Shown here: positions 1 through 57,274 of the stretch, piece by piece
Position numbering within the stretch: position 1 is the stretch's first letter
Layout: the number at the start of each line of letters is the position of its first letter
Source: Nemertoderma westbladi
Taxonomy: Eukaryota > Animalia > Xenacoelomorpha
NCBI GenBank assembly: GCA_032718475.1
Contig: JAUCBJ010009057.1
Location: 62,001 to 126,000, forward strand
Length of the DNA: 64,000 nucleotides
Reading direction: 5' to 3'
Notes under the pieces: model-generated
Seen by the model: only the letters and a program-made list of their open reading frames with translations
Databases searched by the model: none
Told to the model about the DNA's origin: nothing
Made by a program: the position numbers and the translations under genes

Positions 1-3000
1 ATGTAAGTACCGCAAGTATTGGTGTATCATGTAAGTACCGCAAGTATTGGTGTATCATGTAAGTACCGCAAGTATTGGTGTATCATGTAAGTACCGCAAG
101 TATTGGTGTATCATGTAAGTACCGCAAGTATTGGTGTATCATGTAAGTACCGCAAGTATTGGTGTATCATGTAAGTACCGCAAGTATTGGTGTATCATGT
201 AAGTACCGCAAGTATTGGTGTATCATGTAAGTACCGCAAGTATTGGTGTATCATGTAAGTACCGCAAGTATTGGTGTATCATGTAAGTACCGCAAGTATT
301 GTGTATCATGTAAGTACCGCAAGTATTGTGTATCATGTAAGTACCGCAAGTATTGTGTATCATGTAAGTACCGCAAGTATTGGTGTATCATGTAAGTACC
401 GCAAGTATTGGTGTATCATGTAAGTACCGCAAGTATTGGTGTATCATGTAAGTACCGCAAGTATTGGTGTATCATGTAAGTACCGCAAGTATTGGTGTAT
501 CATGTAAGTACCGCAAGTATTGGTGTATCATGTAAGTACCGCAAGTATTGGTGTATCATGTAAGTACCGCAAGTATTGGTGTATCATGTAAGTACCGCAA
601 GTATTGGTGTATCATGTAAGTACCGCAAGTGAGTACCTCAAGTATTGGTGTATCATGTAAGTACCGCAAGTATTGGTGTATCATGTAAGTACCGCAAGTA
701 TTGGTGTATCATGTAAGTACCGCAAGTATTGGTGTATCATGTAAGTACCGCAAGTGAGTACCTCAAGTATTGGTGTATCATGTAAGTACCGCAAGTATTG
801 GTGTATCATGTAAGTACCGCAAGTATTGGTGTACCATGTAAGTACCGCAAGTATTGGTGTATCATGTAAGTACCGCAAGTATTGGTGTACCATGTAGGTA
901 CCGCAAGTATTGGTGTATCATGTAAGTACCGCAAGTATTGGTGTACCATGTAAGTACCGCAAGTATTGGTGTACCATGTAAGTACTGCAAGTATTGGTGT
1001 ATCATGTAAGTACCTCAAGTATTGGTGTACCATGTAAGTACTGCAAGTATTGGTGTATCATGTAAGTACCGCAAGTATTGGTGTACCATGTAGGTACTGC
1101 AAGTATTGGTGTATCATGTAAGTACCGCAAGTATTGGTGTATCATGTAAGTACCGCAAGTATTGGTGTATCATGTAAGTACCGCAAGTATTGGTGTACCA
1201 TGTAAGTACTGCAAGTATTGGTGTACCATGTAAGTACCGCAAGTATTGGTGTATCATGTAAGTACCGCAAGTATTGGTGTATCATGTAAGTACCGCAAGT
1301 ATTGGTGTATCATGTAAGTACCGCAAGTATTGTGTATCATGTAAGTACCGCAAGTGAGTACCTCAAGTATTGGTGTATCATGTAGGTACTGCAAGTATTG
1401 GTGTATCATGTAAGTACCGCAAGTATTGGTGTATCATGTAAGTACCGCAAGTATTGTGTATCATGTAAGTACCGCAAGTGAGTACCTCAAGTATTGGTGT
1501 ATCATGTAGGTACTGCAAGTATTGGTGTATCATGTAAGTACCGCAAGTATTGGTGTATCATGTAAGTACCGCAAGTATTGTGTATCATGTAAGTACCGCA
1601 AGTGAGTACCTCAAGTATTGGTGTATCATGTATGTACCGCAAGTATTGTGTATCATGTAAGTACCGCAAGTATTGGTGTACCATGTAGGTACTGCAAGTA
1701 TTGGTGTATCATGTAAGTACCGCAAGTATTGGTGTACCATGTAAGTACTGCAAGTATTGGTGTATCATGTAAGTACCGCAAGTATTGGTGTATCATGTAA
1801 GTACCGCAAGTATTGGTGTATCATGTAAGTACCGCAAGTATTGGTGTACCATGTAGGTACTGCAAGTATTGGTGTATCATGTAAGTACCGCAAGTATTGG
1901 TGTATCATGTAAGTACCGCAAGTATTGTGTATCATGTAAGTACCGCAAGTATTGGTGTATCATGTAAGTACCGCAAGTATTGGTGTATCATGTAAGTACC
2001 GCAAGTATTGTGTATCATGTAAGTACCGCAAGTGAGTACCTCAAGTATTGGTGTATCATGTAGGTACTGCAAGTATTGGTGTATCATGTAAGTACCGCAT
2101 GTATTGGTGTACCATGTAGGTACTGCAAGTATTGGTGTATCATGTAAGTACCGCAAGTATTGGTGTATCATGTAAGTACTGCAAGTATTGTGTATCATGT
2201 AAGTACCGCAAGTATTGGTGTATCATGTAAGTACCGCAAGTATTGGTGTATCATGTAAGTACCGCAAGTATTGTGTATCATGTAAGTACCGCAAGTGAGT
2301 ACCTCAAGTATTGGTGTATCATGTAGGTACTGCAAGTATTGGTGTATCATGTAAGTACCGCAAGTATTGTGTATCATGTAAGTACCCCAAGTATTGGTGT
2401 ACCATGTAGGTACTGCAAGTATTGGTGTATCATGTAAGTACCGCAAGTATTGGTGTACCATGTAGGTACTGCAAGTATTGGTGTATCATGTAAGTACCGC
2501 AAGTATTGGTGTACCATGTAGGTACTGCAAGTATTGGTGTATCATGTAAGTACCGCAAGTATTGGTGTATCTTTTAAGTACCGCAAGTATTGGTGTATCA
2601 TGTAAGTACCGCAAGTATTGTGTATCATGTAAGTACCGCAAGTGAGTACCTCAAGTATTGGTGTATCATGTAAGTACCGCAAGTATTGGTGTACCATGTA
2701 AGTACCGCAAGTATTGGTGTATCATGTAAGTACCTCAAGTATTGGTGTACCATGTAAGTACCGCAAGTATTGGTGTATCATGTAAGTACCTCAAGTATTG
2801 GTGTATCATGTAAGTACCGCAAGTATTGGTGTACCATGTAAGTACCTCAAGTATTGGTGTATCATGTATGTACGGCAAGTATTGGTGTACCATGTAAGTA
2901 CCTCAAGTATTGGTGTACCATGTAAGTACCGCAAGTATTGGTGCATCATGTAAGTACCGCAAGTATTGGTGTACCATGTAAGTACCTCAAGTATTGGTGT

Positions 3001-3075
3001 ATCATGTAAGTACCTCAAGTATTGGTGTATCATGTATGTACCGCAAGTATTGGTGTATCATGTATGTACCGCAAG
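1..3075. repeat. 28-bp tandem satellite, left array (~110 units), continues beyond window start
   Basis: Unit ATGTAAGTACCGCAAGTATTGGTGTATC repeated head-to-tail. Nearly invariant over the first ~600 bp, then variants appear: GTACC, ACCTC, TAGGTACTGC, a 27-bp form (TATTGTGT) and a 41-bp form (+GAGTACCTCAAGT). Confidence 0.99.
3071..3075 (+). other. 5-bp target-site duplication GCAAG (left copy; also at 13638-13642; right copy at 27847-27851)
   Basis: GCAAG|TGTAAAGG at the start of the 5' LTR and CGAACA|GCAAG after the 3' LTR. The satellite register resumes correctly after the element. Confidence 0.95.
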
Positions 3076-4246
3076 TGTAAAGGCTTTTGCGGAATTAGCC
3101 GGTTATTTTCCCCGTAAAGTACTCTGTAGTTGGTTTAACAGGCATAAAAGGCCGTGTCCTTACTGTACTGGTGTTTTAGAGGACATAAAAGCCATTTCTT
3201 CTGTATGTGTACTTTAGCGGACATAATTAGCAATTCTATGACGCAATACGCCAGATCCTCTTGAAACAGTGTAGCTACCATGACGACGGCTAACAGCTGA
3301 GGCTGTACACGTGGAGCTTTTTCTTTGTTCTCTGTTCCTTCTTTGTTCGGTCGACCAATCAGAGCGTTTTTTGACTCTGTGTTGGAGATTGTATACAGAA
3401 ACTCGTGGAGTTGAGTCAGTATGTGTTTTTATCCACTGCCTAGAACACCGGCTTTGGAACCTCCGTGTTTCAGTCTTTAGCACAACATTAGTAGGCTTAA
3501 TTATAGAACGTATATCTGTTATCATAACTTAACTCACAAACCATACCAATTCGCATCTCATTAAACATATCAATCAAACTTAACTTAACATTTTACTGCT
3601 ATTTACTGTCGGTTATTCATTATATTTGTTAATGGAATATTATATTTGGAATACTGATAAATAATCAGACACCCCAATCTTCTTGATATACTAAAGGTTA
3701 GAGAGACCGGTTACATATAACGATTGCGACTTACATTAAAGTGGTTTGAAGTGAATCTAATGCTATTTCATAGGCCCTACATGTATTGTCTGTTGTTCTC
3801 TTTATATGTGACTAAAATTAGTGAAGGTCGGCAGATCAGTGTGCAGTATTGTGTATGATTGTGACTGATAACAAAGCATCTCCTAAAGAATGCGCCATAT
3901 ACGTGAATCTATAGCCATCCCGTTGTGTCTAGTTTAAGTCATAACTCTGTTTACATATTTAGAGCGCCACGTCCTAAAGGAACTGTTAATATTTCCCGAA
4001 AGTGAATAATATTTGTCAGAGATTATATATTACGATCAGTCGAATAATACAGTAGGCTTACACCGCAATACGGTTAGGCTTCCGAATCCAGTCTCCCGGG
4101 TATATCCAGCGGGTGAATGATCGCGCATAGACTGGCTTCGGCTAATGTAGTGTATCAAATACTTGTCATAGGCTAAAGACGATCTATTATCTAGAAGACA
4201 TCCCAATTTGGCAGGTTAAACTGCTAAAGGTCTGAAAGCGCGAACA
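3076..4246 (+). repeat. 5' LTR of A1 (1171 bp, TGT...ACA)
   Basis: Near-identical to 13643-14823 and 26666-27846, but lacks one copy of the 10-bp GTGCAGTATT duplication. Confidence 0.97.
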
Positions 4247-4257
4247 ATAACAGATAT
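4247..4257 (+). promoter_or_regulatory. Non-tRNA primer-binding-site candidate ATAACAGATAT (complementary to LTR 3512-3522)
   Basis: Occupies the PBS position directly after the LTR and has no TGG. Exact reverse complement of ATATCTGTTAT at 3512-3522. Same arrangement in A2 (14824-14834 vs 14079-14089). Confidence 0.7.
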
Positions 4258-4527
4258 TGCTTCTGTATTGCAGTAGGCAATAAAGCTGAAGTACCGGTTA
4301 ACTGGTACCTAGTAGGCCTGACTACCTAACCACCCGGACCGGTACCTACAGCAGTACAGGTACAGCAGTATTATTCGATTGTGATATTGTATACCGGTAG
4401 GCTGTTTAAGAGATTAGGGACTGTACACCCCTTGTTTCTTTTGGAGCTTACTTATTTCTGTCAGTTTTATTTATTTGTAGGCCAGTATTGAGCAGAAGGC
4501 GTGTAAGCCTGCTCAGATTGTACAGAC

Positions 4528-5105
4528 AATTTGTAGGCTGGACTGTTGTCTGACTGTTGTTAAGTCTGAAGGGACTGTAGTGTGTGTAGAGCGTATGTCC
4601 AAAAAAGTACTAGTTAGGAAAGTAGGGGCTGCCAGTGCTGTGAGGTGAACCCCATCGAAAGAATAAGTCGTACTACTCGGTTAGAACGCATACTAACTAA
4701 CCATTTCGGAGTCTGCATATACTGTAGTGTATTTAGGCTTGATAGCAGTCTGCCAGCGTTTGGTCTGTACTTTGTTTGTGTAGTCTGTACGGGTAGCATA
4801 ATATTCTTATTTAGATAATTTGTAGGCTGGATTTTGCCTGGCTGTTATTAGGTCTGAAGGGATTTCGGTGTGTGTAGAGTGTATGTCCGATAAAGTGCCA
4901 GTTGGGAACGTAGGGGCTTCCAGAGCTGTGAGGTAAACCCCCTCGAAAGAATAAGTCGTACTTCTCGGTTAGAACGCATACTAACTAACCATTTCGGAGT
5001 CTGCATATACCGTAGTTTGTTTAGGCTTGATAGTAGTCTGTCAGTATTTGGTCTGCATTTTGTTTGAGTAGTCTGTACTCGTAGCGTAATATTTATTATT
5101 CAGAG
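4528..5105 (+). repeat. Diverged ~289-bp tandem duplication in the 5' leader
   Basis: AATTTGTAGGCTGGA...GAAAGAATAAGTCGTAC...GCATACTAACTAACCATTTCGGAGTCTGCATATAC recurs, starting at ~4528 and ~4817. Confidence 0.9.
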
Positions 5106-6039
5106 TTTATGCGATTATTCGCAACATTCATATCCCCAAGTTTATTCCTACAGTAATTGTGCTTGTTATATATACCGTTATAGTTAAACTAACCCCGGTA
5201 CTACATCAGGGCTGCTTGGCGTAGGTAAAGACTGGTGATTTTGTGCCCCGGTCACTCCATCAGATACCGTGGTTCTTTTAGCTGTTCAAGTATTTTTAAC
5301 TACTGATTATTGTTGTATAAGTACTTGAACCTAATTTAGGGTTTAGTGTACAGTACTTTCCGAAGGTGATTAGTGTGTAGGCAGTATATTTGTGTTGTAA
5401 AGTGGTTAATAGGCACGTTGGTTCTGGTAGACCGCGGTAATTAACTTCTAGGTAGGAACACTCCGTGATACATAACGTAGTACTTATAGCGATACGGCTA
5501 TAAGTCGTCAGACGGTGGTATTTTCCTATCTGGACAACGCAGTATATTTACTACTACTTATTATTTTCAAATACCGTAGTAACCTGTCCGTTGTAATAAC
5601 CAGATATTCTAACCCTTTGTTAGACTGGTTTGTAGACTTCTTGTAAAATTACCCTAAAAATTCGTACTTGTAATTTTTGTGTTTATTTAGAGATTGTAAT
5701 CTCACCCAGAATTGTACGTAATTTGTAGTATTAAGTAACTTAGGTAAATTAGAATTATTTGTTTTAGTGTCCAACAAGTAGCACTCCACTGAGAGCGCAC
5801 AGCTTCTGTGTAGTGACTCCCCCCAGAAATAATAACATTTATTTCAAATATTGACAAAAACCCATTTTAACGGGTATATATATTATAAATCAACTCAAAC
5901 AATTTATAAATAGTAGGCCTGCCATACAACAATTAGGTCTCGATATCAGTTGGACTACTGCTCAAATAACGGTAATAAAGTAAGTTGAAGTAACAAAGTA
6001 ACCCTAAATTTCAGAAATTCAGTTATTCTAAAATAATTG

Positions 6040-6410
6040 ACATACCGGTATTTACCATAGGCTTATTATATTTATTTCTATAAATTTAGGCTGAAATCAT
6101 ACCGGTATTCTGTGACAAATCTAGTCTGTAATTATACTTATATATATACTATAAGTGTAAGCTGTATACCGGTATTCACGATAGGCCTATTATATATTTA
6201 TAAATTTAGGCTGAAATTATACCGGTATTCTGTAATTAGTTCTAGTCCATAATTATACTTATATATACTATAAGTGTAAGCTGTATACCGGTATTCACAA
6301 TAGGCCTTTTATATATTTATATATACTTGTGCTGGAATTACATACCGGTATTCTGTGACAAACCTAGTCTGTAATAATACTTATATATACTATAAGCATA
6401 CCGGTATCCT
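6040..6410 (+). repeat. ~120-bp AT-rich tandem repeat (3 copies), each containing two TACCGGTA palindromes, upstream of the gag start
   Basis: TACCGGTATT recurs about every 55-65 bp with alternating flanks (…TAGGC…TTATATATTTAT…; …CTAGTC…TATACTTATATATACTATAAG). Confidence 0.88.
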
Positions 6411-6543
6411 AATATATTATATATATATCACGCTACACTGAGTAGCAGTATCGGTAATTAATTACTAGGCTAACGGTGATACTGAATTACTAGACTCGCT
6501 TAAACTGTAATATAGCAGTAGGCATTCAACTGTACAAACCAAC

Positions 6544-9500
6544 ATGTCTGACACAAAGGAAAACCTGTCAGACAGTCTCCTAGATACAACCATATGTGAC
6601 CCAGACAGGAGTGTGGAACGTGTAGGACCGAAGTTCAACTCACCTCCTACTGTAAGAAAGATCATCCCTCTCGTAGTAATATCAGACCCTAGGCTAGTCC
6701 AACATCGTAGGTCTATCATAGGCACTCGAGCTCAGGTCAAGCGGGACCAAGAAGCAGCGGAACAGCAACAACCCGCGAGCCGAGAACTTATTTCCCAGCG
6801 GCCCGGCAGCTCCAGTAGTGAGGATACTGTGGAGCTGACACCCGAGCGCGGAGCAAAGATGACGGATGCGGTTTATTCGGATCCCCTTCTCATCCTTCCT
6901 GCAGCCGTACTCACTAGGGTATTGATTGCAGTGGAAGAACACCAGATTGATTGGGCGAGAAGTAAGCGATCGACCAAGGATAGTTATGCGGGATACACAA
7001 GGGAAGAACTGAAGTCTATTGTCGAGTCGCAATGGAACTTCCCCGGACCCGGACTCCCGTTTGACTTATCGGAAGCTGCCTGGGAAGACATACACAGGAT
7101 GGGAGTAACAAAAGAAACCATCGATCCAGCTGTGTGGAAGAGGTCAGCAGCAGGATACGTACAGGGATTCTTCAGCTCTATGGAGCGATTAAAGGAACAA
7201 CTGTTTCAACAACCCCAAGGACCTCAAGAGCAGGGACAGCTGCTTTATAGAAAGAATTCTGTGAATCAGGCTAATCTTATCGGCCTTTGAGGAGGCTTCT
7301 AAAAGAAGACAAGACACGTCGTTGCAAGTTGCCGTAAAGACTTGGTTTCAACGGGTGAGTCTCCAGGTTCAAGGAACGGCTCAGTGGAAAGCTCAACTGG
7401 ATGAGCGCTCAACCCATGGAGAATCAACAGACGCTACATTTTCCCAAGTGGAAAGTGAAGCGACAGCAGAGAAACCGCATAAGAGGGATGCTATTGACAT
7501 CTATCTGTCGGACTATCAACGTTTTGTAGGAGATGAAGAGTTGAGGAGAAGACTAGAGGGACTTAGCCCTAATAGTGAAGGAGCCAAGCTTGTGTTGGAC
7601 GCAATCGATGTGGATAGGTTAGCTGCAAACCAAGCTAAATTCAATGAAAGCATCCGCATCGCTAAGGTTCAAGAAGAACAAGTAAAGAAAAAACGTATAG
7701 ATGATAGAAAGACAGCAGCAGCGGCAGTGGCAGCGGCAGAAGCGGAAAGAAAAGCGGCCGAAGCGGAAAGAAAGCTAGCAGCGGCAGAAGCGGAAAGAAA
7801 AGCGGCCGAAGCGGAAAGAAAGCTAGCAGCGGCAGAAGCGGAAAGAAAAGTGGCCGAAGTGGAAAGAAAGCTAGCAGTGGCAGAAGCAGAACGGAGGGCA
7901 TCTGAAGAGACAACCCAACTAGAGTTGGAAAATCTTCAAGAGAGGCAAGACAACTTCAATAAACAGTTAACAGCTAGTAATATGCAGATGATGAGTCGAT
8001 CTACTCCCAAAAGACAGGGATATACATCATCTGAGGAAGGCGATACCACCGATACTGAAGGTGGAGGAAATAGATCTCGTCTCAGCAGACGTAGAAGAAT
8101 GTCCCACCGTCAGAAATTGCCTGATTTGCCCCCAGCTGTTCGAAAACAACTAGTTAGCACAGACTTAGGCAGTACAGAACCCCTAGACCAAATTATTAAA
8201 ATAGACAGACTCCCTACTATAGTAGATGAGCCTGAAATAATTAGGCCTGTTCTCGAAGCCACCACTTTGGTGATAGAGACACCTGTACTCCCAAAACCTA
8301 CCTCTAGATTCCCTTTGCATAGCACTAAGCTACCTGTGCCCAGCAGAACAGCCCAAGAGACAGTTCATGTCCTGGACTCCGAGCGAAATATTAATGATTT
8401 GTCGCCCGTTGTCCCTCGTCCGCCCGCTACAACGTTGGCGGCTCCCGCTTCGGCGGTCGTGTGGGTGGATGAGAGACGGCGGGGGATGGATCTCCTGCTC
8501 GGGCAGATGCAGGAGACTGTTAAGCAGTTCAAGGGCACAGTAAGGGAAAGTAGGTTAGAGTTGCAAGAAGTGCAGCAAAGTATCGCATTAGAACGCGATA
8601 AATTAGTAAATACACAAAAGGGTATACCACCACCCCCGGTAACAATGTGTCAACCTGTTAGGTCTGAAGTATTTCATGCGCAAGGTGTGGAGCCTACACG
8701 CATCTATACTGCTAGCGAAGTAGAAACTCCTATAGTGAACCCTATTAAGGGTAATTATAAACCTGTTGATAATGATATTCCCTATAGACCTGATCATAAT
8801 CCTAGAAATTTATATACCGATAACTCGATATTAAATAACACGATGGCCCAAGAAAGTTTTACGCGTCAAATGGCTAGAACCGAAGCCCGTCAAGCGGTAA
8901 AGGTGGGAGAGATAGTCAAGTTCAATGGAGATGAGATGAAATGGTTACCTTTTAATGAATATTATAAAGATAACATACAGAACTCTGTACTATCTAATGG
9001 AGAGAAACTTAGATTCCTCATCGAGTGCTTGGAAGGATCTCCCAAGTTAATGGCGTTAAAGTTTATTGGACATCCAGACGGATTAAGACAAGTTTGGGAT
9101 ACACTAAACATCAGGTATGGTAATAGGAATAACATAGCTAAATATTTGTATGCAAAATTAGTAGCGCCCCGAAAGTTCATTAGCAGTGGGATAATAGAGT
9201 TTTCCGATGAGATTCAAGAGATCTGTAGACAATTAGATTGGTTAGGTAAGTCTCATGAATATCAGAGTTCTATGGTCATTGGAGCCGTGGCTTCTACTTT
9301 ACCGAAGGGTGGAGTAGGTACACGCTGGGATAAGAAAGTGTTATATATGATGGAACAACAACGACGAGACCCTACCATGGCTGATCTCATGTCATTCTTA
9401 GATGGAGAAGTGAAATTACAGCTCCTAAAACAGTCCAGAGAGAAGACACCGGAAAACAAGGTAAGTGAGAAACCCGTTTCTAGGAGAAAGGTAACACCAG

Positions 9501-12500
9501 TGTGTTATACAGACGACGGCGAAAGCCAGACTTCTCAAGGAGAGGATAGTGGGAAAGACACTGAAAGATCTTATTATGTAAATAAAATGCCTAAAGAACA
9601 GGTAAGTAAATTCAAGTCTCGAACCAATGACAGGAGAGAACAGATAAGAAAAACTCCTCCTACGTCTCCTAAGAGAATTCAGGTGAGAAAGCCCGAAGAA
9701 AGAACGAGTGTGCACAATGTTATTCAAAATAAGGTAAGTAAAATCAAACCGAAATGTGCGCTATGTGACGGGACCCACCGTTTGAATATGTGTGATGAAT
9801 TCCTGAAGAAATCATTAACGGAGAGACGGGAAGTCATGTGGGATAAGCGGTTGTGTTATAATTGCCTCAGACAAGGACACCAACGGCGAACCTGTTACTC
9901 CGACACAAGGTGTGCAAAGTGCGGTGCGAAACATCATATCTTGTTGCACACTGAATTTGAGCGAAACAGCCAGAGTCAGGTAAGTGATTCCGAACTACAT
10001 GTCCAATTCAGTGATGTGAACGACACTGACCAAAGTTCTGAGATGGAAGGATTCTATACAGATGAATTCTCCGACGAAAATGAATTCTGTTACATGATAA
10101 ATACCGCAGTGTATCGAGCACTTACGTATGAAAAAGACACAGACAGCGACCTCACCCTAACTACTTCTGATCGACAACCATCTTGGAAAGCGCCACCTTC
10201 CAATGTAGGAATCCGAGAATTTCCTGTAGTACAGTTAAGGGTCCACGGACCTAAAAGGAGTTATGTAGTGAACGCCCTCCTTGACTCCGGTAGTACAGGA
10301 ACATTCATCGACAAAGAACTAGCCGAAGACATCTTTGCTGGACAACCCAAGTACCGAACTAAGCTAAACATGTCAGGAATTATGCAGGTTTGGAAATCTA
10401 CAGTAATAGCGGATTATTATGTAGGTGCGTTGTCCACCCCCCAGGATGAACTAGGAGAACATAGTATAAGGTCAGTGTGGCGATAAAGAACTTCGCTACC
10501 ACCCAAGTGGAACCTTATAACTGGGATGAGGACGATTTCACCCAGCAGCTGGAAATACCTAGATTCAACACCGATTACCCTGGAGTGCAAATACTCATCG
10601 GTCAAAACACGCATGAAGCGCTCGAGACATTGGAGAAACGGCCTGCTCAACCGCAACCACTACAAGCTTATGCGGGAAGAACTAGAGTGGGTTGGTACTT
10701 TACTGGCCCTTCCCGTAGAACTCTCATGGAAAGATTACCGAAAGACCAGGTATATCAGGTAAGAGAATGGGAAGTCGAGAGCAGTGAGTTAGACGATCCA
10801 ACTGAGGGAACACCATACTCCTCAGATAATGACGATGTCCACCAACTTTTCAATGAGGAGAATACCATTGATCTCCTTAAGGAAAACGAGACTTGGCAAA
10901 ACCAAGTGAACTTATGTCAGCTCCTTCTTCCATCAGAACGAGACGACTATAACGACGAACTTAATGACGTCATTGAACGTTATAATGCCAAGACTCGGGA
11001 TGAACACGCCGTACGATTCTTTACTCAAGAGGCTGTAGAGCCCAATTCCTACGATAAGGCCCTATCGGTAGAGGAAGAAAGAGCCAAGCAGATCCAAGAG
11101 ACAACTACACGTTTTCTTAAAGATCAAGGTAGATATGAGATCGGTCTACCTTTCCGAAAGCGAGAACCAAAGTTCATAAACAACAGACCCTTGGCAGAGA
11201 AAAGAATTGCTCAACTACATCGACGCCTTGCGGCAAATTCTTCAGCTAAAGAAATGTATCAAACGCAGTTGAAGAAATTTATTAGCAAGGGATATGCGGA
11301 GCGAGTACCGGAAGAAACACCTATAACTGAGAGAACGTATTATTTAACTCACCATTACGTTCCCAAACCCGGTAAACCCCATGAAGTATGAGTGGTGTTT
11401 GACGGCTCCGCCCTCTATATGGGCCAATCCCTTAATTCCGAATTGTTACCCGGACCCAACTTACTCCAATCCTTGTTGGGAATACTCTTAAGATTAAGAC
11501 AATATTCAATCGCTTTCGCCTCAGATATAGAAGGCATGTTCTTACAAGTTAAGGCGCTGGATAGGGATCGAGATAGCCTACGATTTCTGTGGTGGCCTGA
11601 AGGAGACCTCAACCAGAAACCAGTGGAGTACTGGATGACCATCCAGGCTTTTGGGATAATCTCAAGCCCTTCAAACGCCTGTTCAGTGGTGCGCACCACT
11701 GCGGATGACAACCGAGAAGCCTTCTCTAAAGAGGTGATTGACAACATCAAACGGGATATATACATGGACGATAATCTAAAGTCCCTTCCATCAGTCGAAG
11801 AAGCCATTGATGTCGCTAAAGGAATGGTAGAGTGCTTAAAAAGAGGTGGATTTCGATTAACTAAATTCACCAGCAACTCCCGTGAGTTTCTGGAGTCGAT
11901 CCCAGTAGAAGATAGAGGAGCGAAAGACCTGGATCTAATCAAAGATGATCTTCCAGAAACCAAGACACTTGGTTTGAAATGGGACACAGAGAGAGATGTC
12001 CTGTTCTTCCAGCTAAAACAGCGAGATAATCCAGTTCGTACTAAACGGATTTGTTTAAGTATCCTGAGCACTTATTTCGATCCATTGGGATTTATTAGCC
12101 CAGTTATATTGATTGCTCGGAGTTTAGTACAACAAATGTGGCTTGAAAACCACTCATGGGACGATCCACTTAAGGGAGAATTATTAAAGAAGTGGATGAA
12201 ATGGGAAGATTCTCTACCAGCCATCGAGAACTTTATAATTTCCCGTTCATATTTTGGTCATGTTCTCCCTACGTATTCCTATCAACTCCATGTGTTTGGA
12301 GACGCCTGCGATATGGGAATAGGTATAGTAGCCTACCTAAGGGTGGAAACTCTGGACGGAATCAAAGTCGCCTTGGTTACCTCTAAGGCATTGATAAACA
12401 ATAAGTTGAAAGTTCCTCGAGCGGAGTTAAAAGCGGCTCTATACGCTACAGCCATCGGCCGGAATGTAACAGAACAGATCGACTATCCACTGGAGAAAAC

Positions 12501-13415
12501 TGTCTATTGGACCGACGCTTTACTCGTGTTGGAGTATATAACTAATGAAGTCTGTCAGTTCAGCGTCTTCGTTACCAACAGAGTAGCCATTATACTCAGT
12601 CGCACAACGATGGATCAATGGAGACATTGCCCCGGAACGATTAATCCAGCAGACATCGCCTCCAGGGGAGCAACTCCACAAGAACTGGTAGATACTCCAG
12701 ACTGGCTAGGTGGACCCGACTTCCTCTACAAAGAAGAAGAAGAATGGCCTCCTCATCTTACTACCACAGAGATTAGACAGGCCAAGGGAGCGGAGAAAGT
12801 CAAACCTAAAACTCGGGCGAGTAAATCGAAGTTATTCAAACCTATGGTAGATCTGTCTGTACTACATACTTCTGGAGACGACGCTTTGGATCACAAACCC
12901 ACAGCCACAAACAAGTTTGTTGTGGAAATCCATGAGAAGGATTGGAAATCTGGAATACCAGACGTCTCGCAAGGACTCTCACCTCTTCTGCAGAGAGCGA
13001 TACATCACTACAGTTCCTGGAATCGGCTCTGTAAGGCCGTTACATATTTAAAGAGATGTTTTCACCATCACTACTCCGGGATGAAGACCAAAAGTGATAC
13101 CGCTCCAATAACATCGGTGCAGGTCCATGTTATTAAAGATCTTCCCAAATATAAGATATCCGACAGGTTTCTGAAGGAGAAGATCAGTTATCAGGAGCAT
13201 GAAGAAACCAACAAACAGATGCTGAGACTCCTGCAATGCTATGAGGATTCCGATAAGTATTTCCTGTTGTTGAGAAATCCGCAGATGCGCTTAAGGGATC
13301 GTTTCTCTAGCACAATGATAGATGGGTTGATACGTGTTGGAGGAAGATTAACGAACGCTCCATTATCCTTTGACACTAAGTTTCCCATACTCATTAGAAA
13401 TCTTGAAATACAAGT
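6544..13415 (+). pseudogene. gag-pol: Disrupted gag-pol of A1 (ORF pieces 6544-7290, 7322-10486, 10477-11391, 11392-13415)
   Basis: Gag core KFNGDEMKWLPF…EKLRFLIECLEG (DUF1759-like). Knuckles CALCDGTHRLNMC, CYNCLRQGHQRRTC, CAKCGAKHH. PR LLDSGS; RT SDIEGMFLQV…YMDD; RNase H LHVFGDA, VPRAEL, WTDA, NPADIASRG. Lesions: frameshift near 7265-7290, 7-bp deletion near 10476 relative to A2, in-frame TGA at 11389-11391, 3' truncation. Confidence 0.95.
7725..7895 (+). repeat. Coding minisatellite in gag (48-bp unit, AAEAERKAAEAERKLA), predicted charged alpha-helix
   Basis: GCGGCAGAAGCGGAAAGAAAAGCGGCCGAAGCGGAAAGAAAGCTAGCA repeated about 3 times in frame. Confidence 0.92.
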
Positions 13416-13417
13416 TT

Positions 13418-13642
13418 GTATTGGTGTATCATGTATGTACGGCAAGTATTGGTGTACCATGTAAGTACCTCAAGTATTGGTGTACCATGTAAGTACCGCA
13501 AGTATTGGTGTATCATGTAAGTACCGCAAGTATTGGTGTACCATGTAAGTACCTCAAGTATTGGTGTATCATGTAAGTACCTCAAGTATTGGTGTATCAT
13601 GTATGTACCGCAAGTATTGGTGTATCATGTATGTACCGCAAG
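13418..13642. repeat. 8-unit satellite block, duplicate of 2851-3075
   Basis: Same order of variant units as the block before LTR A1 (one SNP), at an offset of 10,567 bp. Confidence 0.95.
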
Positions 13643-14823
13643 TGTAAAGGCTTTTGCGGAATTAGCCGGTTATTTTCCCCGTAAAGTACTCTGTAGTTGG
13701 TTTAACAGGCATAAAAGGCCGTGTCCTTACTGTACTGGTGTTTTAGAGGACATAAAAGCCATTTCTTCTGTATGTGTACTTTAGCGGACATAATTAGCAA
13801 TTCTATGACGCAATACGCCAGATCCTCTTGAAACAGTGTAGCTACCATGACGACGGCTAACAGCTGAGGCTGTACACGTGGAGCTTTTTCTTTGTTCTCT
13901 GTTCCTTCTTTGTTCGGTCGACCAATCAGAGCGTTTTTTGACTCTGTGTTGGAGATTGTATACAGAAACTCGTGGAGTTGAGTCAGTATGTGTTTTTATC
14001 CACTGCCTAGAACACCGGCTTTGGAACCTCCGTGTTTCAGTCTTTAGCACAACATTAGTAGGCTTAATTATAGAACGTATATCTGTTATCATAACTTAAC
14101 TCACAAACCATACCAATTCGCATCTCATTAAACATATCAATCAAACTTAACTTAACATTTTACTGCTATTTACTGTCGGTTATTCATTATATTTGTTGAT
14201 GGAATATTATATTTGGAATACTGATAAATAATCAGACACCCCAATCTTCTTGATATACTAAAGGTTAGAGAGACCGGTTACATATAACGATTGCGACTTA
14301 CATTAAAGTGGTTTGAAGTCAATCTAATGCTATTTCATAGGCCCTACATGTATTGTCTGTTGTTCTCTTTATATGTGACTAAAATTAGTGAAGGTCGGCA
14401 GATCAGTGTGCAGTATTGTGCAGTATTGTGTATGATTGTGACTGATAACAAAGCATCTCCTAAAGAATGCGCCATATATGTAAATCTATAGCCATCCCGT
14501 TGTGTCTAGTTTAAGTCATAACTCTGTTTACATATTTAGAGCGCCACGTCCTAAAGGAACTGTTAATATTTCCCGAAAGTGAATAATATTTGTCAGAGAT
14601 TATATATTACGATCAGTCGAATAATACAGTAGGCTTACACCGCAATACGGTTAGGCTTCCGAATCCAGTCTCCCGGGTATATCCAGCGGGTGAATGATCG
14701 CGCATAGACTGGCTTCGGCTAATGTAGTGTATCAAATACTTGTCATAGGCTAAAGACGATCTACTATCTAGAAGACATCCCAATTTGGCAGGTTAAACTG
14801 CTAAAGGTCTGAAAGCGCAAACA
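13643..14823 (+). repeat. 5' LTR of A2 (1181 bp)
   Basis: TGTAAAGG...GCGCAAACA; matches the other two LTRs. Confidence 0.97.
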
Positions 14824-15434
14824 ATAACAGATATTGCTTCTGTATTGCAGTAGGCAATAAAGCTGAAGTACCGGTTAACCGGTACCTAGTAGGCCTGACT
14901 ACCTAACCACCCGGACCGGTACCTACAGCAGTACAGGTACAGCAGTATTATTCGATTGTGATATTGTATACCGGTAGGCTGTTTAAGAGATTAGGGACTG
15001 TACACCCCTTGTTTCTTTTGGAGCTTACTTATTTCTGTCAGTTTTATTTATTTGTAGGCCAGTATTGAGCAGAAGGCGTGTAAGCCTGCTCAGATTGTAC
15101 AGACAATTTGTAGGCTGGACTGTTGTCTGACTGTTGTTAAGTCTGAAGGAACTGTAGTGTGTGTAGAGCGTATGTCCGAAAAAGTACTAGTTAGGAAAGT
15201 AGGGGCTGCCAGTACTGTGAGGTGAACCCCCTCGAAAGAATAAGTCGTACTACTCGGTTAGAACGCATACTAACTAACCATTTCGGAGTCTGCATATACT
15301 GTAGTGTATTTAGGCTTGATAGTAGTCGCCAGCGTTTGGTCTGTACTTTGTTTGTGTAGTCTGTACGGGTAGCATAATATTCTTATTTAGATAATTTGTA
15401 GGCTGGATTTTGCCTGGCTGTTATTAGGTCTGAA

Positions 15435-18400
15435 TTACAGCTCCTAAAACAGTCCAGAGAGAAGACACCGGAAAACAAGGTAAGTGAGAAACCCGTTTCT
15501 AGGAGAAAGGTAACACCAGTGTGTTATACAGACGACGGCGAAAGCCAGACTTCTCAAGGAGAGGATAGCGGGAAAGACACTGAAAGATCTTATTATGTCA
15601 ATAAAATGCCTAAAGAACAGGTAAGTAAATTCAAGTCTCGAACCAATGACAGGAGAGAACAGATAAGAAAAACTCCTCCTACGTCTCCTAAGAGAATTCA
15701 GGTGAGAAAGCCCGAAGAAAGAACGAGTGTGCACAATGTTATTCAAAATAAGGTAAGTAACATCAAACCGAAATGTGCGCTATGTGACGGGACCCACCGT
15801 TTGAATATGTGTGATGAATTCCTGAAGAAATCATTAACGGAGAGACGTGAAGTCATGTGGGATAAGCGGTTGTGTTATAATTGCCTCAGACAAGGACACC
15901 AACGGCGAACCTGTTACTCCGACACAAGGTGTGCAAAGTGCGGTGCGAAACATCATATCTTGTTGCACACTGAATTTGAGCGAAACAGCCAGAGTCAGGT
16001 AAGTGATTCCGAACTACATGTCCAATTCAGTGATGTGAACGACACTGACCAAAGTTCTGAGATGGAAGGATTCTATACAGATGAATTCTCCGACGAAAAT
16101 GAATCCTGTTACATGATAAATACCGCAGTGTATCGAGCACTTACGTATGAAAAAGAAACAGACAGCGACCTCACCCTAACTACTTCTGATCGACAACCAT
16201 CTTGGAAAGCGCCACCTTCCAATGTAGGAATCCGAGAATTTCCTGTAGTACAGTTAAGGGTCCACGGACCTAAAAGGAGTTATGTAGTGAACGCCCTCCT
16301 TGACTCCGGTAGTACAGGAACATTCATCGACAAAGAACTAGCCGAAGACATCTTTGCTGGACAACCCAAGTTCCGAACTAAGCTAAACATATCAGGAATT
16401 ATGCAGGTTTGGAAATCTACAGTAATAGCGGATTATTATGTAGGTGCGTTGTCCACCCCCCAGGATGAACTAGGAGAACATAGTATAAGGTCAGTAAAAA
16501 TGGTGGCGATAAAGAACTTCGCTACCACCCAAGTGGAACCTTATAACTGGGATGAGGACGATTTCACCCAGCAGCTGGAAATACCTAGATTCAACACCGA
16601 TTACCCTGGAGTGCAAATACTCATCGGTCAAAACGCGCATGAAGCGCTCGAGACATTGGAGAAACGGCCTGCTCAACCGCAACCACTACAAGCTCATGCG
16701 GGAAGAACTAGAGTGGGTTGGTACTTTACTGGCCCTTCCCGTAGAACTCTCATGGAAAGATTACCGAAAGACCAGGTATATCAGGTAAGAGAATGGGAAG
16801 TCGAGAGCAGTGAGTTAGACGATCCAACTGAGGGAACACCATACTCCTCAGATAATGACGATGTCCACCAACTTTTCGATGAGGAGAATACCATTGATCT
16901 CCTTAAGGAAAACGAGACTTGGCAAAACCAAGTGAACTTATGTCAGCTCCTTCTTCCATCAGAACGAGACGACTATAACAATTATAACAACTATAACAAT
17001 ACTATAACGACGAACTTAATGACGTCATTGAACGTTATAATGCCAAGACTCGGGATGAACACGCCGTACGATTCTTTACTCAAGAGGCTGTAGAGCCCAA
17101 TTCCTACGATAAGGCCCTATCGGTAGAGGAAGAAAGAGCCAAGCAGATCCAAGAGACAACTACACGTTTTCTTAAAGATCAAGGTAGATATGAGATCGGT
17201 CTACCTTTCCGAAAGCGAGAACCAAAGTTCATAAACAACAGACCCTTGGCAGAGAAAAGAATTGCTCAACTACATCGACGCCTTGCGGCAAATTCTTCAG
17301 CTAAAGAAATGTATCAAACGCAGTTGAAGAAATTTATTAGCAAGGGATATGCGGAGCGAGTACCGGAAGAAACACCTATAACTGAGAGAACGTATTATTT
17401 AACTCACCATTACGTTCCCAAACCCGGTAAACCCCATGAAGTATGAGTGGTGTTTGACGGCTCCGCCCTCTATATGGGCCAATCCCTTAATTCCGAATTG
17501 TTACCCGGACCCAACTTACTCCAATCCTTGTTGGGAATACTCTTAAGATTAAGACAATATTCAATCGCTTTCGCCTCAGATATAGAAGGCATGTTCTTAC
17601 AAGTTAAGGCGCTGGATAGGGATCGAGATAGCCTACGATTTCTGTGGTGGCCTGAAGGAGACCTCAACCAGAAACCAGTGGAGTACTGGATGACCATCCA
17701 GGCTTTTGGGATAATCTCAAGCCCTTCAAACGCCTGTTCAGTGGTGCGCACCACTGCGGATGACAACCGAGAAGCCTTCTCTAAAGAGGTGATTGACAAC
17801 ATCAAACGGGATATATACATGGACGATAATCTAAAGTCCCTTCCATCAGTCGAAGAAGCCATTGATGTCGCTAAAGGAATGGTAGAGTGCTTAAAAAGAG
17901 GTGGATTTCGATTAACTAAATTCACCAGCAACTCCCGTGAGTTTCTGGAGTCGATCCCAGTAGAAGATAGAGGAGCGAAAGACCTGGATCTAATCAAAGA
18001 TGATCTTCCAGAAACCAAGACACTTGGTTTGAAATGGGACACAGAGAGAGATGTCCTGTTCTTCCAGCTAAAACAGCGAGATAATCCAGTTCGTACTAAA
18101 CGGATTTGTTTAAGTATCCTGAGCACTTATTTCGATCCATTGGGATTTATTAGCCCAGTTATATTGATTGCTCGGAGTTTAGTACAACAAATGTGGCTTG
18201 AAAACCACTCATGGGACGATCCACTTAAGGGAGAATTATTAAAGAAGTGGATGAAATGGGAAGATTCTCTACCAGCCATCGAGAACTTTATAATTTCCCG
18301 TTCATATTTTGGTCATGTTCTCCCTACGTATTCCTATCAACTCCATGTGTTTGGAGACGCCAGCGATATGGGAATAGGTATAGTAGCCTACCTAAGGGTG

Positions 18401-20701
18401 GAAACTCCGGACGGAATCAAAGTCGCCTTGGTTACCTCTAAGGCATTGATAAACAATAAGTTGAAAGTTCCTCGAGCGGAGTTAAAAGCGGCTCTATACG
18501 CTACAGCCATCGGCCGGAATGTAACAGAACAGATCGACTATCCACTGGAGAAAACTGTCTATTGGACCGACGCTTTACTCGTGTTGGAGTATATAACTAA
18601 TGAAGTCTGTCAGTTCAGCGTCTTCGTTACCAACAGAGTAGCCATTATACTCAGTCGCACAACGATGGATCAATGGAGACATTGTCCCGGAATGATTAAT
18701 CCAGCAGACATCGCCTCCAGGGGAGCAACTCCGCAAGAACTGGTAGATACTCCAGACTGGCTAGGTGGACCCGACTTCCTCTACAAAGAAGAAGAAGAAT
18801 GGCCTCCTCATCTTACTACCACAGAGATTAGACAGGCCAAGGGAGCGGAGAAAGTCAAACCTATAACTCGGGCGAGTAAATCGAAGTTATTCAAACCTAT
18901 GGTAGATCTGTCTGTACTACATACTTCCGGAGACGATGCTTTGGATCAGAAACCCACAGCCACAAACAAGTTTGTTGTGGAAATCCGTGAGAAGGATTGG
19001 AAATCTGGAATACCAGACGTCTCGCAAGGACTCTCACCTCTTCTGCAGAGAGCGATACATCACTACAGTTCCTGGAATCGGCTCTGTAAGGCCGTTACAT
19101 ATTTAAAATGATGTTTCCACCATCACTACTCCGGGATGAAGACCAAAAGTGATACCGCTCCAATAACATCGGTGCAGGTCCATGTTATTAAAGATCTTCC
19201 CAAATATAAGATATCCGACAGGTTTCTGAAGGAGAAGATCAGTTATCAGGAGCATGAAGAAACCAACAAACAGATGCTGAGACTCCTGCAATGCTATGAG
19301 GATTCCGATAAGTATTTCCTGTTGTTGAGAAATCCGCAGATGCGCTTAAGGGATCGTTTCTCTAGCACAATGATAGATGGGTTGATACGTGTTGGAGGAA
19401 GATTAACGAACGCTCCATTATCCTTTGACACTAAGTTTCCCATACTCATTAGAAATCTTGAAATACAAGTCAAGATGATTGTAGACGTTCACAGCAAACT
19501 TTATCATGCTGGTAGAGAACGAGTTCTTAGCGAAATTCAAACTCGCTATTATTTTTATAAACCCCGTAGAGCTCTGAACCAAGTTCTTAGGAACTGCATA
19601 CCCTGTAGGAAAGCATTCAGTAGGCCTTTAACACAGCGAGAGGCAGAATTACCTAGGGAACGAGTAAGCTTCTATGAACCACCCTTTACTAATACCGGTG
19701 TGGATTTATTTGGCCCTATTGAAGTATATCGTGCTAGGACTATAGTCAAGAGATGGTGTGTCATCTTTGTTTGTATGACTTGTAGAGCTATCCATCTCGA
19801 TATGGTGAACGATTTATCTACCAACAGCTTTCTACTAAGCTTACGACGACAGATCGCTCGCTTTGGCACTAGTAACACGATGAGATCTGATAAGGGAACA
19901 AACTTCATTGGTGCCAACAATGAAATCAAAGCTTACGTCAAAGATTGGAACCAAAGACAGGTGGACGATCAGCTACGAGTAACAGCGTCTAGCTGGACCT
20001 TCAATGCCGCCTACGCCCCTTGGTGGGGAGGAAGTTGGGAGAGATTAATAAGAAGTGTGAAGACAGCATTTCACTTCATAGTGCCTTGCCGCGCGTATCT
20101 CACCGACGAACTTTTGCGGACGTTAATGGAGGAAATCGCCGCCTATCTCAACGAGAGACCGCTTATGCCAGTCTCATCGAGTCCCGATTCCCTGGAAGCG
20201 CTAACACCCGCGCACTTCCTACTGAAGAAACCTGTAGCCATGCTCCCACAATCGGAAATCACAGACGGAGACGAATACTGCCGGCAAACTTGGCAACTCA
20301 TGCAATTGTTATCCCGTCGTTTCTCTGACCATTTCGAGAAACATTACTTGCCCACTCTACAACTTCGAACTAAGTGGTTTGCGCAGCAAGAGAACGTCAG
20401 CGCTGGAGACATGGTTCTTATTGTGGATGTAGATCTTCCACGTAAGCGGTGGCAGACAGGTCGTATCATCGAGACTCACATCTCGGATGACGGTTTGGTG
20501 CGATCGGTAGAACTCGTCGTCATGCGACGTAACTTCAAGAAACCGGGAATTGTCTTCGAGACACAGCAGCTCAATCGCCCAGTTGGTCGCTTATGTTTAC
20601 TGGAAAGAGACAGAGAACTCTCCGGAAACTATGGAAGGCAAGATACTCTTCCCACGACCACCTCCCTAATCCAACAAACATCTAGGGACTCCCCCACTTA
20701 A
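15435..20701 (+). pseudogene. gag-pol: Disrupted gag(3' part)-pol of A2, including a complete integrase (ORF 19136-20701)
   Basis: Same domains as A1. Integrase has HHCC (HSKLYH…CIPC), DDE (VDLFGP, SDKGTNF, WERLIRS) and a BEL-type C-terminal region (RTKW…GDMVLI…DGLVRSV…RPVGRLCLLE). Lesions: loss of 5' gag, frameshifting insertion at ~16980, TGA at 17444-17446 and TGA at 19109-19111. Confidence 0.95.
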
Positions 20702-21249
20702 CAACGGCTGGAGTGGGTGTATGACTATATTTTATATTTGTTTTTATTCTTTTATATTTATGTATGTATTATTATGTAATTTTATTATAATCGTTTTCTT
20801 TAATTTTATTTAGTAGAATGTTATTTTAGCGATTATTTAGTAGATTAGTGCAATATATATTAGCGTTTATTACTTAATTACTTATATATTATATTTAGTG
20901 CGACGGCGAGAAATAATTCTTTTTCTCCTTCCTTACTGTCCGTATTACATTACAAATACGTAACTACAGTAAGATGAAATGTCCGTACTTATTAAAGTAG
21001 AATAAAGCTCCTACTATATTTAAGTATTATTGGTAAGCAGAGTAAAAGGAATACAAAATTCAGATCCTCGTGTCTCGGCTAAACCAAGCTCTGGGTAGAC
21101 CTTGGAAACGACTTGCCTCTTCTCACTGACATTGCTTCGTGCGATATTGCTCTCATACTGTATATTAAATAATACATATAGTAGCGTGATGTCCCTTTAA
21201 CAGTAGCGTATAACGCAAAATAAATCTGTTAAACCCTTTGACCATCTGC

Positions 21250-21525
21250 AATTCTAGTCGATTAAGATATCGCGGCACCCACTGATATACTTGAAAGACA
21301 AAATTCTAGAATCAGTGGTTAACGTCCCCAGACAAGTTCTGGAATAAACTGGTGCCCATCCTAAATATTAATTATTAATATTTACAAATTCTGTCAAATT
21401 TTAGATCCTTTAAAATTCTAGTCTATTAAGATATCGTAGCACTTACCGATACTCTTAAAAGGACAAAATTCCTAGAATCAAGGATCCCAGTCCCCAGACA
21501 TGTTCTGGAATAAAATTGTGTCTAT
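21250..21525 (+). repeat. Diverged ~110-bp direct repeat (spacing ~164 bp) in the spacer between pol and the extra ORF
   Basis: AATTCTAGTC-ATTAAGATATCG…ACAAAATTC…GTCCCCAGACA-GTTCTGGAATAAA occurs at ~21250 and ~21414. Confidence 0.85.
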
Positions 21526-22334
21526 TTAACATTAAATAATAAAATTTACGGGAATAAATTTAAATTCATATATTTAATGAATTTAATAAATTGTCATTTT
21601 TATACAATTTATAATATTCCCAAAATTCCTTTAATTAATAGATCATGGGAGCGGAGATTCACTCTATTAAGTGTATTAGTGTGCGAGAATCTCCAATATA
21701 TAGTCAATAGCCGATAAAATTCATAAAATCATGTATAAAGGGGATATTGACCATTAAAGAATTACTATTAAATAGCATCCCAGATCTGTATGCATGAGAA
21801 TTACCCTAATTCTACCGCTAGCTTTCCATAATGTCACCATGGCAACAACCACGCTAGAATTAGAAGTGAGTTAAAAGAACAATAGAAAGCTTGCCCCATT
21901 GAATAGCATAGGGAATAAATAGCGCACTGCTAGTATCCAAGGATACATAATAAATAAAGTGACATTCTGGAAGGTACTGACTAACGGACAAATGGCCCGA
22001 ATGTGTACAGTTTGTGGCAGTTGTGTTGAATTTGTGCGTTCATAGGTGAATGTTACTGCTAAAGTGTGTTTACAGTAGCTAGTCGCAATTGTGAAAGTAG
22101 CCCTAACTCTCCAGAAAGAACCTGAAGTACATCTAAGCCTTTGGGACGGACAGTGGAGTGACTTGCGCCGGTTATCGTTGTCATTGTGTAGCTACATCGT
22201 TGGCGAAAGCACAGCGACGACGGTACATCGGCGCTGAGGATCTTGCACTGTCCGGGGGCAAAAGAGGGGTAGGCAGCGACGCCCGCTAGCCTAATATATA
22301 AACTCATTATAATATTGATAAACTCATAGCAGAT

Positions 22335-24851: not shown

Positions 24852-26587
24852 TTGCTCCCTGGGCAGAAGGCCGATGTTTCTTCCGCACCATGTATGCCAA
24901 TACACCCAGCGGCATTACTAAAGTACAACGAACCTCCATCGGACATCTTGCCTTTCAAGAATACGGATGGAATTTCAAGGTTGGAAATCCTATCAATTAC
25001 CAACAAGTATATGGAGACCATTATTCTCGTTTATACTTTGATGGACCATTGACCGCACCTGGCGCCGTGTATAGCTTTATGAGTGTTCCACTTCGTCCCT
25101 CCTTAGCTATATACACGATCTTTGAAAACGCAGCACTTGCCGGTTGGCTAGCCGATGTGTGCAGTCGTACCATACGCGCCCATCCCTTAATACTTGGAAC
25201 CAAACTCGCCAAGTTAGATGAACACAATAAATTCATCCGCTTCGAATGTTTCAGGCGCTTTCTGACTCCGTTCCGTAACGTTGATAGTCAGTTCAAGGAC
25301 CGCGCTCTGACCAAACTCAGCCTAAGAGACTCAGCTGCGGAGAAGCTAAACAGCGCGGGATTTGCCCTCTTTCAGGACGTTTGTATACAGAACTTACATT
25401 CATCTGTTATACAAAGACCCCGAATACCCACGGGTTATTCTGTCGTGGAAGTTCAGACAGTGGGTCCGCTTGCGGAGACAGCCGCACCTACCTCAGCTAT
25501 GCAATTGGAAGACGAACCAATATGCTTAGAATCTGAAGCGATCCAGCCTACAGCACCCCGGAGCAGCGATAACGATTACGTCTTGGAGTGGTATCAAGGT
25601 CCACAATGTCTCACTGCATACGATTATCGACACGCCAACTATGTTTCTCGAAAACGTTGTCGATTATGCGCATCGAGAGACCATGTCACCCCTATGGACT
25701 CAGACGTACCCTGCTCCTATTTCCACGAACAACCGATGATGGAGATCTATTGTGCGTATTGCAGACTTAATAACTCGCATATTTTTGCAGTCTGCCCCCA
25801 ATTTATGACCCAATGCCACCACTGTCAACTTAAAGGACATGCCAGTTATAATTGCCCCTTTAACCGCGATTTAGAAAGCGTAGATGAGATGATTACCCTG
25901 CGCTACATCCGAGCTTGGGAAGCGAACGCGGATTTACATTGTGAGTCCTGCCATCGCTACTACCCTGGACGCTCTTACGAGGGAGTTTACGCGTTCCATC
26001 CTTATTTATTCGCGTCTGTGGAACAAAAAACACGCACACCGAGTTATGAACTAATGAAGCGTGTTGGTGAGTGTATTTCCACCAAATTTGTTCGAAAATA
26101 TCTTAGGAACGTCAATCCTAACGATATTACTTCATACCATTTGATCAATTTCATCCGTCAAGACCCTGAGTATGGCGATTTATTTATCAACTCGCACCCT
26201 GAGTTACAGGAAGTATCTCGACGGCCCTACGAATATCGAGCCCGAGAACGCGAGCTGGAAAGAACCATTAAACCGAGGAAGTTTCTCACCACTCACGGTC
26301 CACCTACCGCCATTGTCCAGACGACCCGTCAAGGACCCGTCGGAGCTGCTGTCCTAAGACGCACCCTAAAGGCCGTTAGACCTCGCTCCACTGAAGTTGA
26401 TATCGATCAACCAGGTACCTCGACCGGCGGATACACCGATCGTAATCCTAAACCTTCTGATGCAATTGTATTGCACCCTTCACCCAGGAGTTATAGCCCT
26501 CCTAGTAAAGTGGCTTGCCCCAAAGAGAAAAGGACTCTTGCTAGCCTCAAAAAACTGCGTAAACGCCGTCCGCGTAAGAAAGACTAA
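24812..26587 (+). CDS. Extra ORF of element A, C-terminal part (591 aa; CCHC zinc knuckles, basic NLS-like tail); probably one ~1,417-aa ORF with the preceding frame
   Basis: CRLCASRDH…C, CAYCRLNNSHIFAVC and canonical CX2CX4HX4C CHHCQLKGHASYNC; ends KKLRKRRPRKKD. One added base (e.g. in the A4 run at 24795-24798) would fuse the two frames. Confidence 0.8.
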   Translation: MENIPYPFVDTQLIAPWAEGRCFFRTMYANTPSGITKVQRTSIGHLAFQEYGWNFKVGNPINYQQVYGDHYSRLYFDGPLTAPGAVYSFMSVPLRPSLAIYTIFENAALAGWLADVCSRTIRAHPLILGTKLAKLDEHNKFIRFECFRRFLTPFRNVDSQFKDRALTKLSLRDSAAEKLNSAGFALFQDVCIQNLHSSVIQRPRIPTGYSVVEVQTVGPLAETAAPTSAMQLEDEPICLESEAIQPTAPRSSDNDYVLEWYQGPQCLTAYDYRHANYVSRKRCRLCASRDHVTPMDSDVPCSYFHEQPMMEIYCAYCRLNNSHIFAVCPQFMTQCHHCQLKGHASYNCPFNRDLESVDEMITLRYIRAWEANADLHCESCHRYYPGRSYEGVYAFHPYLFASVEQKTRTPSYELMKRVGECISTKFVRKYLRNVNPNDITSYHLINFIRQDPEYGDLFINSHPELQEVSRRPYEYRARERELERTIKPRKFLTTHGPPTAIVQTTRQGPVGAAVLRRTLKAVRPRSTEVDIDQPGTSTGGYTDRNPKPSDAIVLHPSPRSYSPPSKVACPKEKRTLASLKKLRKRRPRKKD

Positions 26588-26657
26588 CTGTTTAGAGTAT
26601 TTTTATATTTTAGAAACTGTGATTTGTTATATTTTATAGACTTAAATCCCATTTTCT

Positions 26658-57194: not shown

Positions 57195-57274
57195 GTAACT
57201 AAATCCGAGCTGCCGCCCCAGTTAAACTCTGAGAACTATACTGCTAGCTAGTCGAACTCCACCGAGCAGACGAG

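Follow-up and report, generated by a model that had tools for sequence, protein, structure and literature searches.

Element A, a BEL/Pao retrotransposon of Nemertoderma westbladi, carries at the position of its primer-binding site (PBS) a sequence that matches its own long terminal repeat (LTR) and not a tRNA. The most probable reading, to which we give about two chances in three, is that a cut 5′ piece of the element's own transcript would prime reverse transcription in cis. In its way of working A likely resembles Tf1, without being a member of the Tf1 group. The feature itself is real: A is BEL/Pao by its proteins and lacks the tRNA-type PBS that is a criterion of the family.

The window analysed, a stretch of 64,000 nucleotides, is a 28-bp satellite array housing three BEL/Pao elements named A, B and C (Table 1). 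The three LTRs of A are 99.0–99.5% identical, have TG...CA termini and measure 1171–1181 nt. The pentanucleotide GCAAG flanks LTR1 and LTR2 on the left and LTR3 on the right, as a 5-bp target site duplication (TSD). Since LTR1 and LTR2 share this left flank and TSD, A is a single insertion that was partly duplicated in tandem; its frames are interrupted. The TSD is derived from the satellite unit sequence. Unit 1 ends within the integrase region and continues as satellite, while unit 2 lacks the part corresponding to ~4859–9413.

The domains of A above the Pfam cut-off were PF03564, PF05380, PF17921 and PF18701; DUF1759, Pao peptidase A17, an integrase zinc domain and DUF5641 were recognized, and the domain order is PR-RT-RH-IN. 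The protein homologs are BEL elements, with at most 42% identity across most of the query. All matches were to BEL-type families and none to the Ty3/gypsy chromovirus Pol of the Tf1/sushi group. A is thus assigned to BEL/Pao by its Pol, as a variant in priming. A Pfam search with the two extra ORFs of 849 and 615 aa gave no match, and an ESM Atlas search with the 849-aa ORF no usable one. The second extra ORF contains Cys/His knuckle-like motifs, and homologous pieces of it are retained in B. The viral contig collection yielded no relative. Rfam models run over 3000–6600 returned a single chance match and no ribozyme. The U5 stretch 3960–4140, which has no Rfam match, hardly varies between A and B and shows the deepest coverage in three DNA runs.

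Table 1. Coordinates of the repeats, elements and candidate priming features within the window.
Feature	Position	Strand	Remarks
28-bp satellite array, ~1,000 copies	1–3075, 13417–13642, 27847–55029		surrounds elements A and B
Left TSD GCAAG of A	3071–3075, again 13638–13642; right copy 27847–27851	+	within satellite array
Element A	3076–27846	+	
LTR1, 5′ LTR of A	3076–4246	+	1171 nt
CCAAT-box-like motif	3355–3364	+	present in B and C LTRs too; putative function
Candidate self-primer segment	3512–3522	+	exact PBS complement; possible further pairing up to 3502
ATTAAA, first poly(A)-type hexamer	3560–3565	+	38 nt downstream of primer end
U5 hairpin, 8 bp	4207–4228	+	retained in B with changed letters; weak alone
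PBS position of A	4247–4257	+	no TGG; self-complementary to LTR; extended pairing reaches 4267
Unit 1 gag (DUF1759, zinc knuckles), protease, RT/RNase H	7265–13464	+	interrupted frames; truncated in integrase region at ~13415
LTR2, duplicate 5′ LTR of A	13643–14823	+	primer segment 14079–14089
Second PBS copy	14824–14834	+	
Unit 2 RT/RNase H (PF05380) and integrase (PF17921, PF18701)	17447–20701	+	separated by an in-frame stop
Two extra ORFs, 849 and 615 aa	22302–26587	+	between integrase and 3′ LTR
Polypurine tract	26658–26665	+	8-nt purine run preceding LTR3
LTR3, 3′ LTR of A	26666–27846	+	primer segment 27102–27112
3′ LTR of sister element B	55030–56229	-	~81% identical to A in U5 half
5′ LTR of distant BEL element C, nested in B	56653–57194	+	3′ end predicted
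C, 9-nt complement of 57195–57203	57016–57024	+	57195–57203 follows predicted LTR end; no TGG
C, 8-bp hairpin	57169–57189		

A first-pass annotation of this DNA had taken the 5′ LTR end of A as fixed, and the other LTRs together with the 5-bp TSD GCAAG confirm it. TGG is absent from the first 12 nt past this end, as had been said of the 11 nt that follow the LTR. Sequence search located ATAACAGATAT at 4247–4257 and at 14824–14834, and its reverse complement at 3512, 14079 and 27102. The exact complementarity claimed between the PBS position and 3512–3522 (LTR nt 437–447) is therefore correct. The motif does occur in all three A LTRs, but these belong to one partly duplicated insertion and are not the independent copies that the count of three would imply. 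The chance of such a match had been put at ~3e-4, which proved too favourable: matches of at least 11 nt arose at offset 0 in 36 of 20,000 dinucleotide shuffles of the A LTR (0.0018) and at offsets 0–5 in 82 of 20,000, a figure ~6–14 times weaker though still beyond chance. None of 1,500 interior decoys gave a match as long as that of A. With the boundary withheld, a blind scan of A reached 11 nt in 23 of 300 shuffles, which is not significant; the significance of the match stems from the LTR boundary being known, and this boundary is firmly fixed. The pairing can be extended to 20 bp, between 3502–3522 and 4247–4267 with two single bulges. The free energy of the extended duplex is unexceptional, 35 of 150 unanchored decoys binding equally well. 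A splice-made primer in A was also considered with any GT donor allowed and was rejected, the best junction match (10 nt) being shorter than the contiguous 11 nt.

The position of the pairing segment within the transcript was examined through promoter-like motifs, poly(A) signals and RNA folding. A TATA-like motif at 3392 and an initiator-like motif at 3416–3421 (plus strand), both putative promoter parts, would mark a possible start near 3418, upstream of 3512. The spacing of CCAAT and initiator-like motifs is similar in A, B and C. These promoter-like motifs, ~95 nt upstream of 3512, suggest a start at ~3418 in A. The sequence TTAATTATAGAA was discarded as a TATA box for a start at 3512: it lies directly before 3512, which is too close, and inside the extended pairing. 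AATAAA/ATTAAA hexamers occur in 10 of 12 LTRs, and all 13 of them are downstream of the primer end, the first at a distance of 7–98 nt. The pairing segment would consequently open the R region, which the model requires. For an A transcript starting at 3512, RNA folding gave helix probabilities of 0.86–0.98 over the first 8 pairs, and for starts at 3418, 3472 and 3500 probabilities of at most 0.02, bearing in mind that long-range folding is unreliable; the corresponding helix of C has a probability of ~0.7. Predicted folding thus favours a start at 3512, whereas the promoter-like motifs favour ~3418. A start far from 3512 would be compatible with self-priming, because the primer of the splice-junction relatives described below needs splicing, unlike the first 11 nt of Tf1. 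In U5, the hairpins, candidates for a U5-IR-like stem-loop beside the PBS as in Tf1/sushi-type self-priming, are inconsistent between families: the number of shuffles folding equally well, out of 200, was 4 for B and C, 27 for A, 8–157 for five self-matching relatives and 31 for the TGG control.

The upstream starts bring in an LTR-derived primer acting in trans, whereby the RNA annealing to the PBS would be either a short (possibly spliced) transcript of a solo or 3′ LTR or the particle's second genome copy. No cis helix is predicted for such starts in A, 725 nt separate primer and PBS, and three DNA runs, from two studies, contain the family in great abundance, so that LTR transcripts could be plentiful. 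Nevertheless, a cis helix is predicted for C and for the 3512 start in A, and Tf1 operates in cis according to the accessible part of PMC7175516. We regard priming in trans as rather unlikely.

To place A among its relatives, metagenome contigs were scanned for BEL loci with a cluster of A homologs, not A itself, as the query; 549 loci were confirmed, and the best 80 of them were taken further. For 19 of these 80, which represent 10 families, two copies allowed the LTR end to be set; in F10 the 3′ copy stops with the contig, and the F4 and F7 ends were judged by eye from the point of divergence between copies. Within this set drawn from the best 80 of 549 loci, nine of the 10 families have no TGG and carry, 0–5 nt past the LTR end, a perfect 10–13-nt complement to their own LTR, which decoys equalled in 0–4 of 1,500 cases. 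The tenth, L077, is the sole TGG family and has an own-LTR match of 4 nt only. Self-match and TGG are mutually exclusive within the 10-family set. F2, F3 and F5 have one PBS core in common, and the nine self-matching families therefore hold seven distinct words. The match is kept with different letters. That the lineage self-primes, as the first-pass annotation had proposed, is upheld to this extent: A has no tRNA-type PBS and matches its own LTR, and nine of 10 distant BEL families keep the match.

The diversity of these words also bears on a primer derived from a cleaved (half) tRNA or from a tRNA-like RNA encoded by the element. Such priming exists in some copia lineages (PMC6317226, accessible part). 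ARAGORN found no tRNA in the window, however, and seven different PBS words, each matching its own LTR, make a tRNA-derived primer extremely improbable.

Scanning without a given LTR end was more variable. L047 reached 15 nt and L065 11 nt (0 of 300 shuffles each) and L002 14 nt (0 of 60 shuffles); L012 reached 10 nt (6 of 300), L070 11 nt (8 of 300) and L044 9 nt (77 of 300). A scan of 15 regions gave at least 11 nt in seven and at most 9 nt in eight, the latter mostly from miscalled LTR starts. Two of the longer matches were set aside: the 13-nt match of L015 sits in an inverted-repeat insertion (L015:6240–6460) and is a false self-complement in the LTR, and the top match of L005 is the product of a wrong LTR start. 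After correction of the starts by eye, with any GT donor allowed and no null, the top match in 12 of 14 regions was a 9–15-nt site beginning with GT, a count that is purely descriptive; of these 14, L027 gave no match and L013 an ambiguous one. Formal testing took in all but 36 of the 80 loci, and five further loci were read for context.

The complement is contiguous, as in A, in three of the nine self-matching families. The other six have it only as a sequence spanning a GT(A/G)AG...YAG junction, and their introns measure 71–366 nt. A 168-nt GT-AG interval is present in L011 and missing, to its exact limits, from the related L009, which may be either a spliced transcript or an intron-less copy. 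L042 is spliced at a primer position at which L005, L034 and L038, all from its clade, have a contiguous complement. From these two comparisons the LTR intron looks real. AC forms the end of the pairing segment in each of the nine self-matching families, in C and in the B homolog. A has AT opposite a PBS that starts with A, a double change relative to the AC pattern. In a quick tree from which L026 was left out, the self-matching families are scattered over a large group including fish, mollusc, cnidarian and echinoderm proteins. A, C and L077 lie near its base without a firm placement, A and C on long branches, and A and C may belong to the clade of the self-matching relatives.

The same families help in weighing a structural role, in which the pairing would be a selected RNA structure (for packaging, dimerisation or as a spliced-RNA switch) and another host RNA or mechanism would prime at the same place. 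A primer and a structural helix are indistinguishable by sequence alone, and the length that the pairing may reach in A, 20 bp, would suit a structure. But the helix begins where priming has to begin, 0–5 nt away from the LTR end, and TGG is absent there. The PBS words vary among families, which one host RNA does not explain, and the helix is missing from the TGG family L077. A purely structural role is therefore unlikely in our judgement.

Only the 3′ end of B is inside the window, its PBS being outside. Compared with A, the B homolog of the primer segment (55790->55780) has 2 of its 11 positions changed. Contigs from two studies match the B variant exactly. The promoter and primer region of B is without coverage in a run that was guessed to be RNA. 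Directly past the predicted primer end, the A and B LTRs are unalignable for ~60 nt (B 55779–55720, minus strand), and contig joints in other copies coincide at 55780/55781. This B segment bears a weak likeness to the A leader (E 0.08–0.3). The divergence of B 55779–55720 at the putative cut site could be a strand-transfer scar.

C, which has 34% RT identity with A, gave a 9-nt match and no TGG at the best of 34 candidate CA ends; given that predicted end, 77 of 20,000 shuffles did as well. In a blind scan 37 of 300 shuffles were as good, which is not significant. The self-match of C, resting on a predicted LTR end, lends the pattern weak support. A splice-made primer for C (11 nt, offset 1), the best with any GT donor allowed, was rejected, its donor being poor and upstream of the CCAAT motif. 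The C LTR holds four related copies of a segment resembling the PBS complement, and an open Gag-Pol frame runs from 60498 to the window end.

B and the spliced relatives bear on whether the match in A is a product of chance, or of an inversion or template switch at the DNA level, unrelated to the pattern in the relatives. The 1171-nt LTR is AT-rich, the blind scan of A was not significant (23 of 300), A is defective and its position in the tree is uncertain, all of which could be taken in favour of an accident. Against it stand the anchored probability of 0.002 and the retention in B of a homologous segment ending in AC. Moreover, a complement to a splice junction, as found in six families, should not be able to arise by DNA inversion. 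An accidental origin therefore appears very unlikely.

The preferred reading, self-priming in cis, can be laid out as follows. Pol II would initiate within the LTR, at 3512 or upstream. In many relatives the removal of a GT-AG intron would then build the pairing segment, A representing an unspliced form. The segment would fold back on the PBS, and the RNA would be cleaved immediately 3′ of the helix (3522/3523 in A, behind the AC in the relatives), probably by the RNase H of the element as in Tf1. Reverse transcriptase would extend from the cut end through U5 and then jump to the 3′ copy of R, which would extend beyond the cut because the poly(A) signal is downstream of it. The 3′ end of the RNA would pass on the part of the LTR upstream of the cut, including the intron. 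Should the primer be copied during plus-strand synthesis, the PBS would follow the spliced primer automatically. We lean slightly towards a broader scenario, in which a wide aquatic branch of BEL/Pao abandoned tRNA priming and takes its primer from its own RNA, mostly from halves joined by the spliceosome; the PBS would be the reverse-transcribed spliced primer, and intron loss would have led to contiguous forms like A. If so, splicing would gate replication.

Self-priming in A would constitute a further, independent origin of tRNA-free priming, beyond gypsy and copia. The elements would be freed from the tRNA supply and possibly from silencing by tRNA fragments. A primer completed by splicing would couple reverse transcription to RNA processing. 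The self-primer model predicts exact RNA ends, and a self-made primer would explain why PBS annotation based on tRNAs would overlook such elements. The first-pass annotation knew of no description of self-priming in BEL/Pao, and our search of the openly accessible full-text literature, main texts only, likewise turned up no report either of it or of primers made by splicing; records in Repbase and GyDB may mention the pairing. The terms 'PBS' and 'tRNA' are both absent from a BEL/Pao survey (PMC3118150) and from the Sinbad paper (PMC554778), as is 'self-prim' from PMC13524379 and PMC2774666.

Members of BEL/Pao (Belpaoviridae, genus Semotivirus) have an 18-nt PBS for the 3′ end of tRNA-Arg or tRNA-Gly and a genome of 4.2–10 kb, and the ICTV defines them as primed by host tRNA, their replication being poorly understood (PMC8742986). 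A resembles them in its Gag DUF1759, PR-RT-RH-IN order, Pao peptidase A17, DUF5641, TG...CA LTRs of 1.2 kb, short polypurine tract and 5-bp TSD. Its LTRs of 1171–1181 nt and its 8-nt purine run agree with the LTR range of 0.2–1.2 kb and the tract of ~10 nt of the family. In contrast, A has no TGG within 12 nt of the LTR end where a tRNA-Arg or tRNA-Gly PBS would stand, its unit 2 alone (13643–27846) measures 14.2 kb, and it carries two extra ORFs with no Pfam match.

The closest parallels in priming lie outside the family. In Tf1 of Schizosaccharomyces pombe the primer is the first 11 bases of its own RNA, released by an RNase H cut (PMC7175516, accessible part), and the same self-priming has been proposed for Tj1 of S. 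japonicus (PMC4600332, accessible part). It is also predicted for Tcn1 and for the TAR clade of Ty1/copia (PMC6317226, accessible part). In the accessible parts of these three papers, Tf1/Tf2, Tj1 and the Tf1/sushi and Tcn1 chromoviruses of Ty3/gypsy have, like A, no tRNA PBS but ~11 nt by the 5′ LTR that are complementary to their own LTR; the Tf1/sushi hallmark of an own-LTR complement with no tRNA match is thus present in A. However, the Pol is of gypsy type there and of BEL/Pao type in A. The primer of Tf1 is formed by the first 11 nt of its RNA, whereas in many relatives of A the pairing segment would be made by splicing, and unlike Tf1/sushi elements these relatives have an offset of 0–5 nt from the LTR end. 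Self-priming of Tf1 is experimentally proven, while for A it is a likely reading of the sequence. The TAR clade (Houba, Osr-1) differs from A in consisting of plant copia elements, and the accessible part of PMC6317226 mentions no splice-made primer for it; as in A, self-priming is predicted there from PBS-LTR complementarity, outside the Tf1/sushi group.
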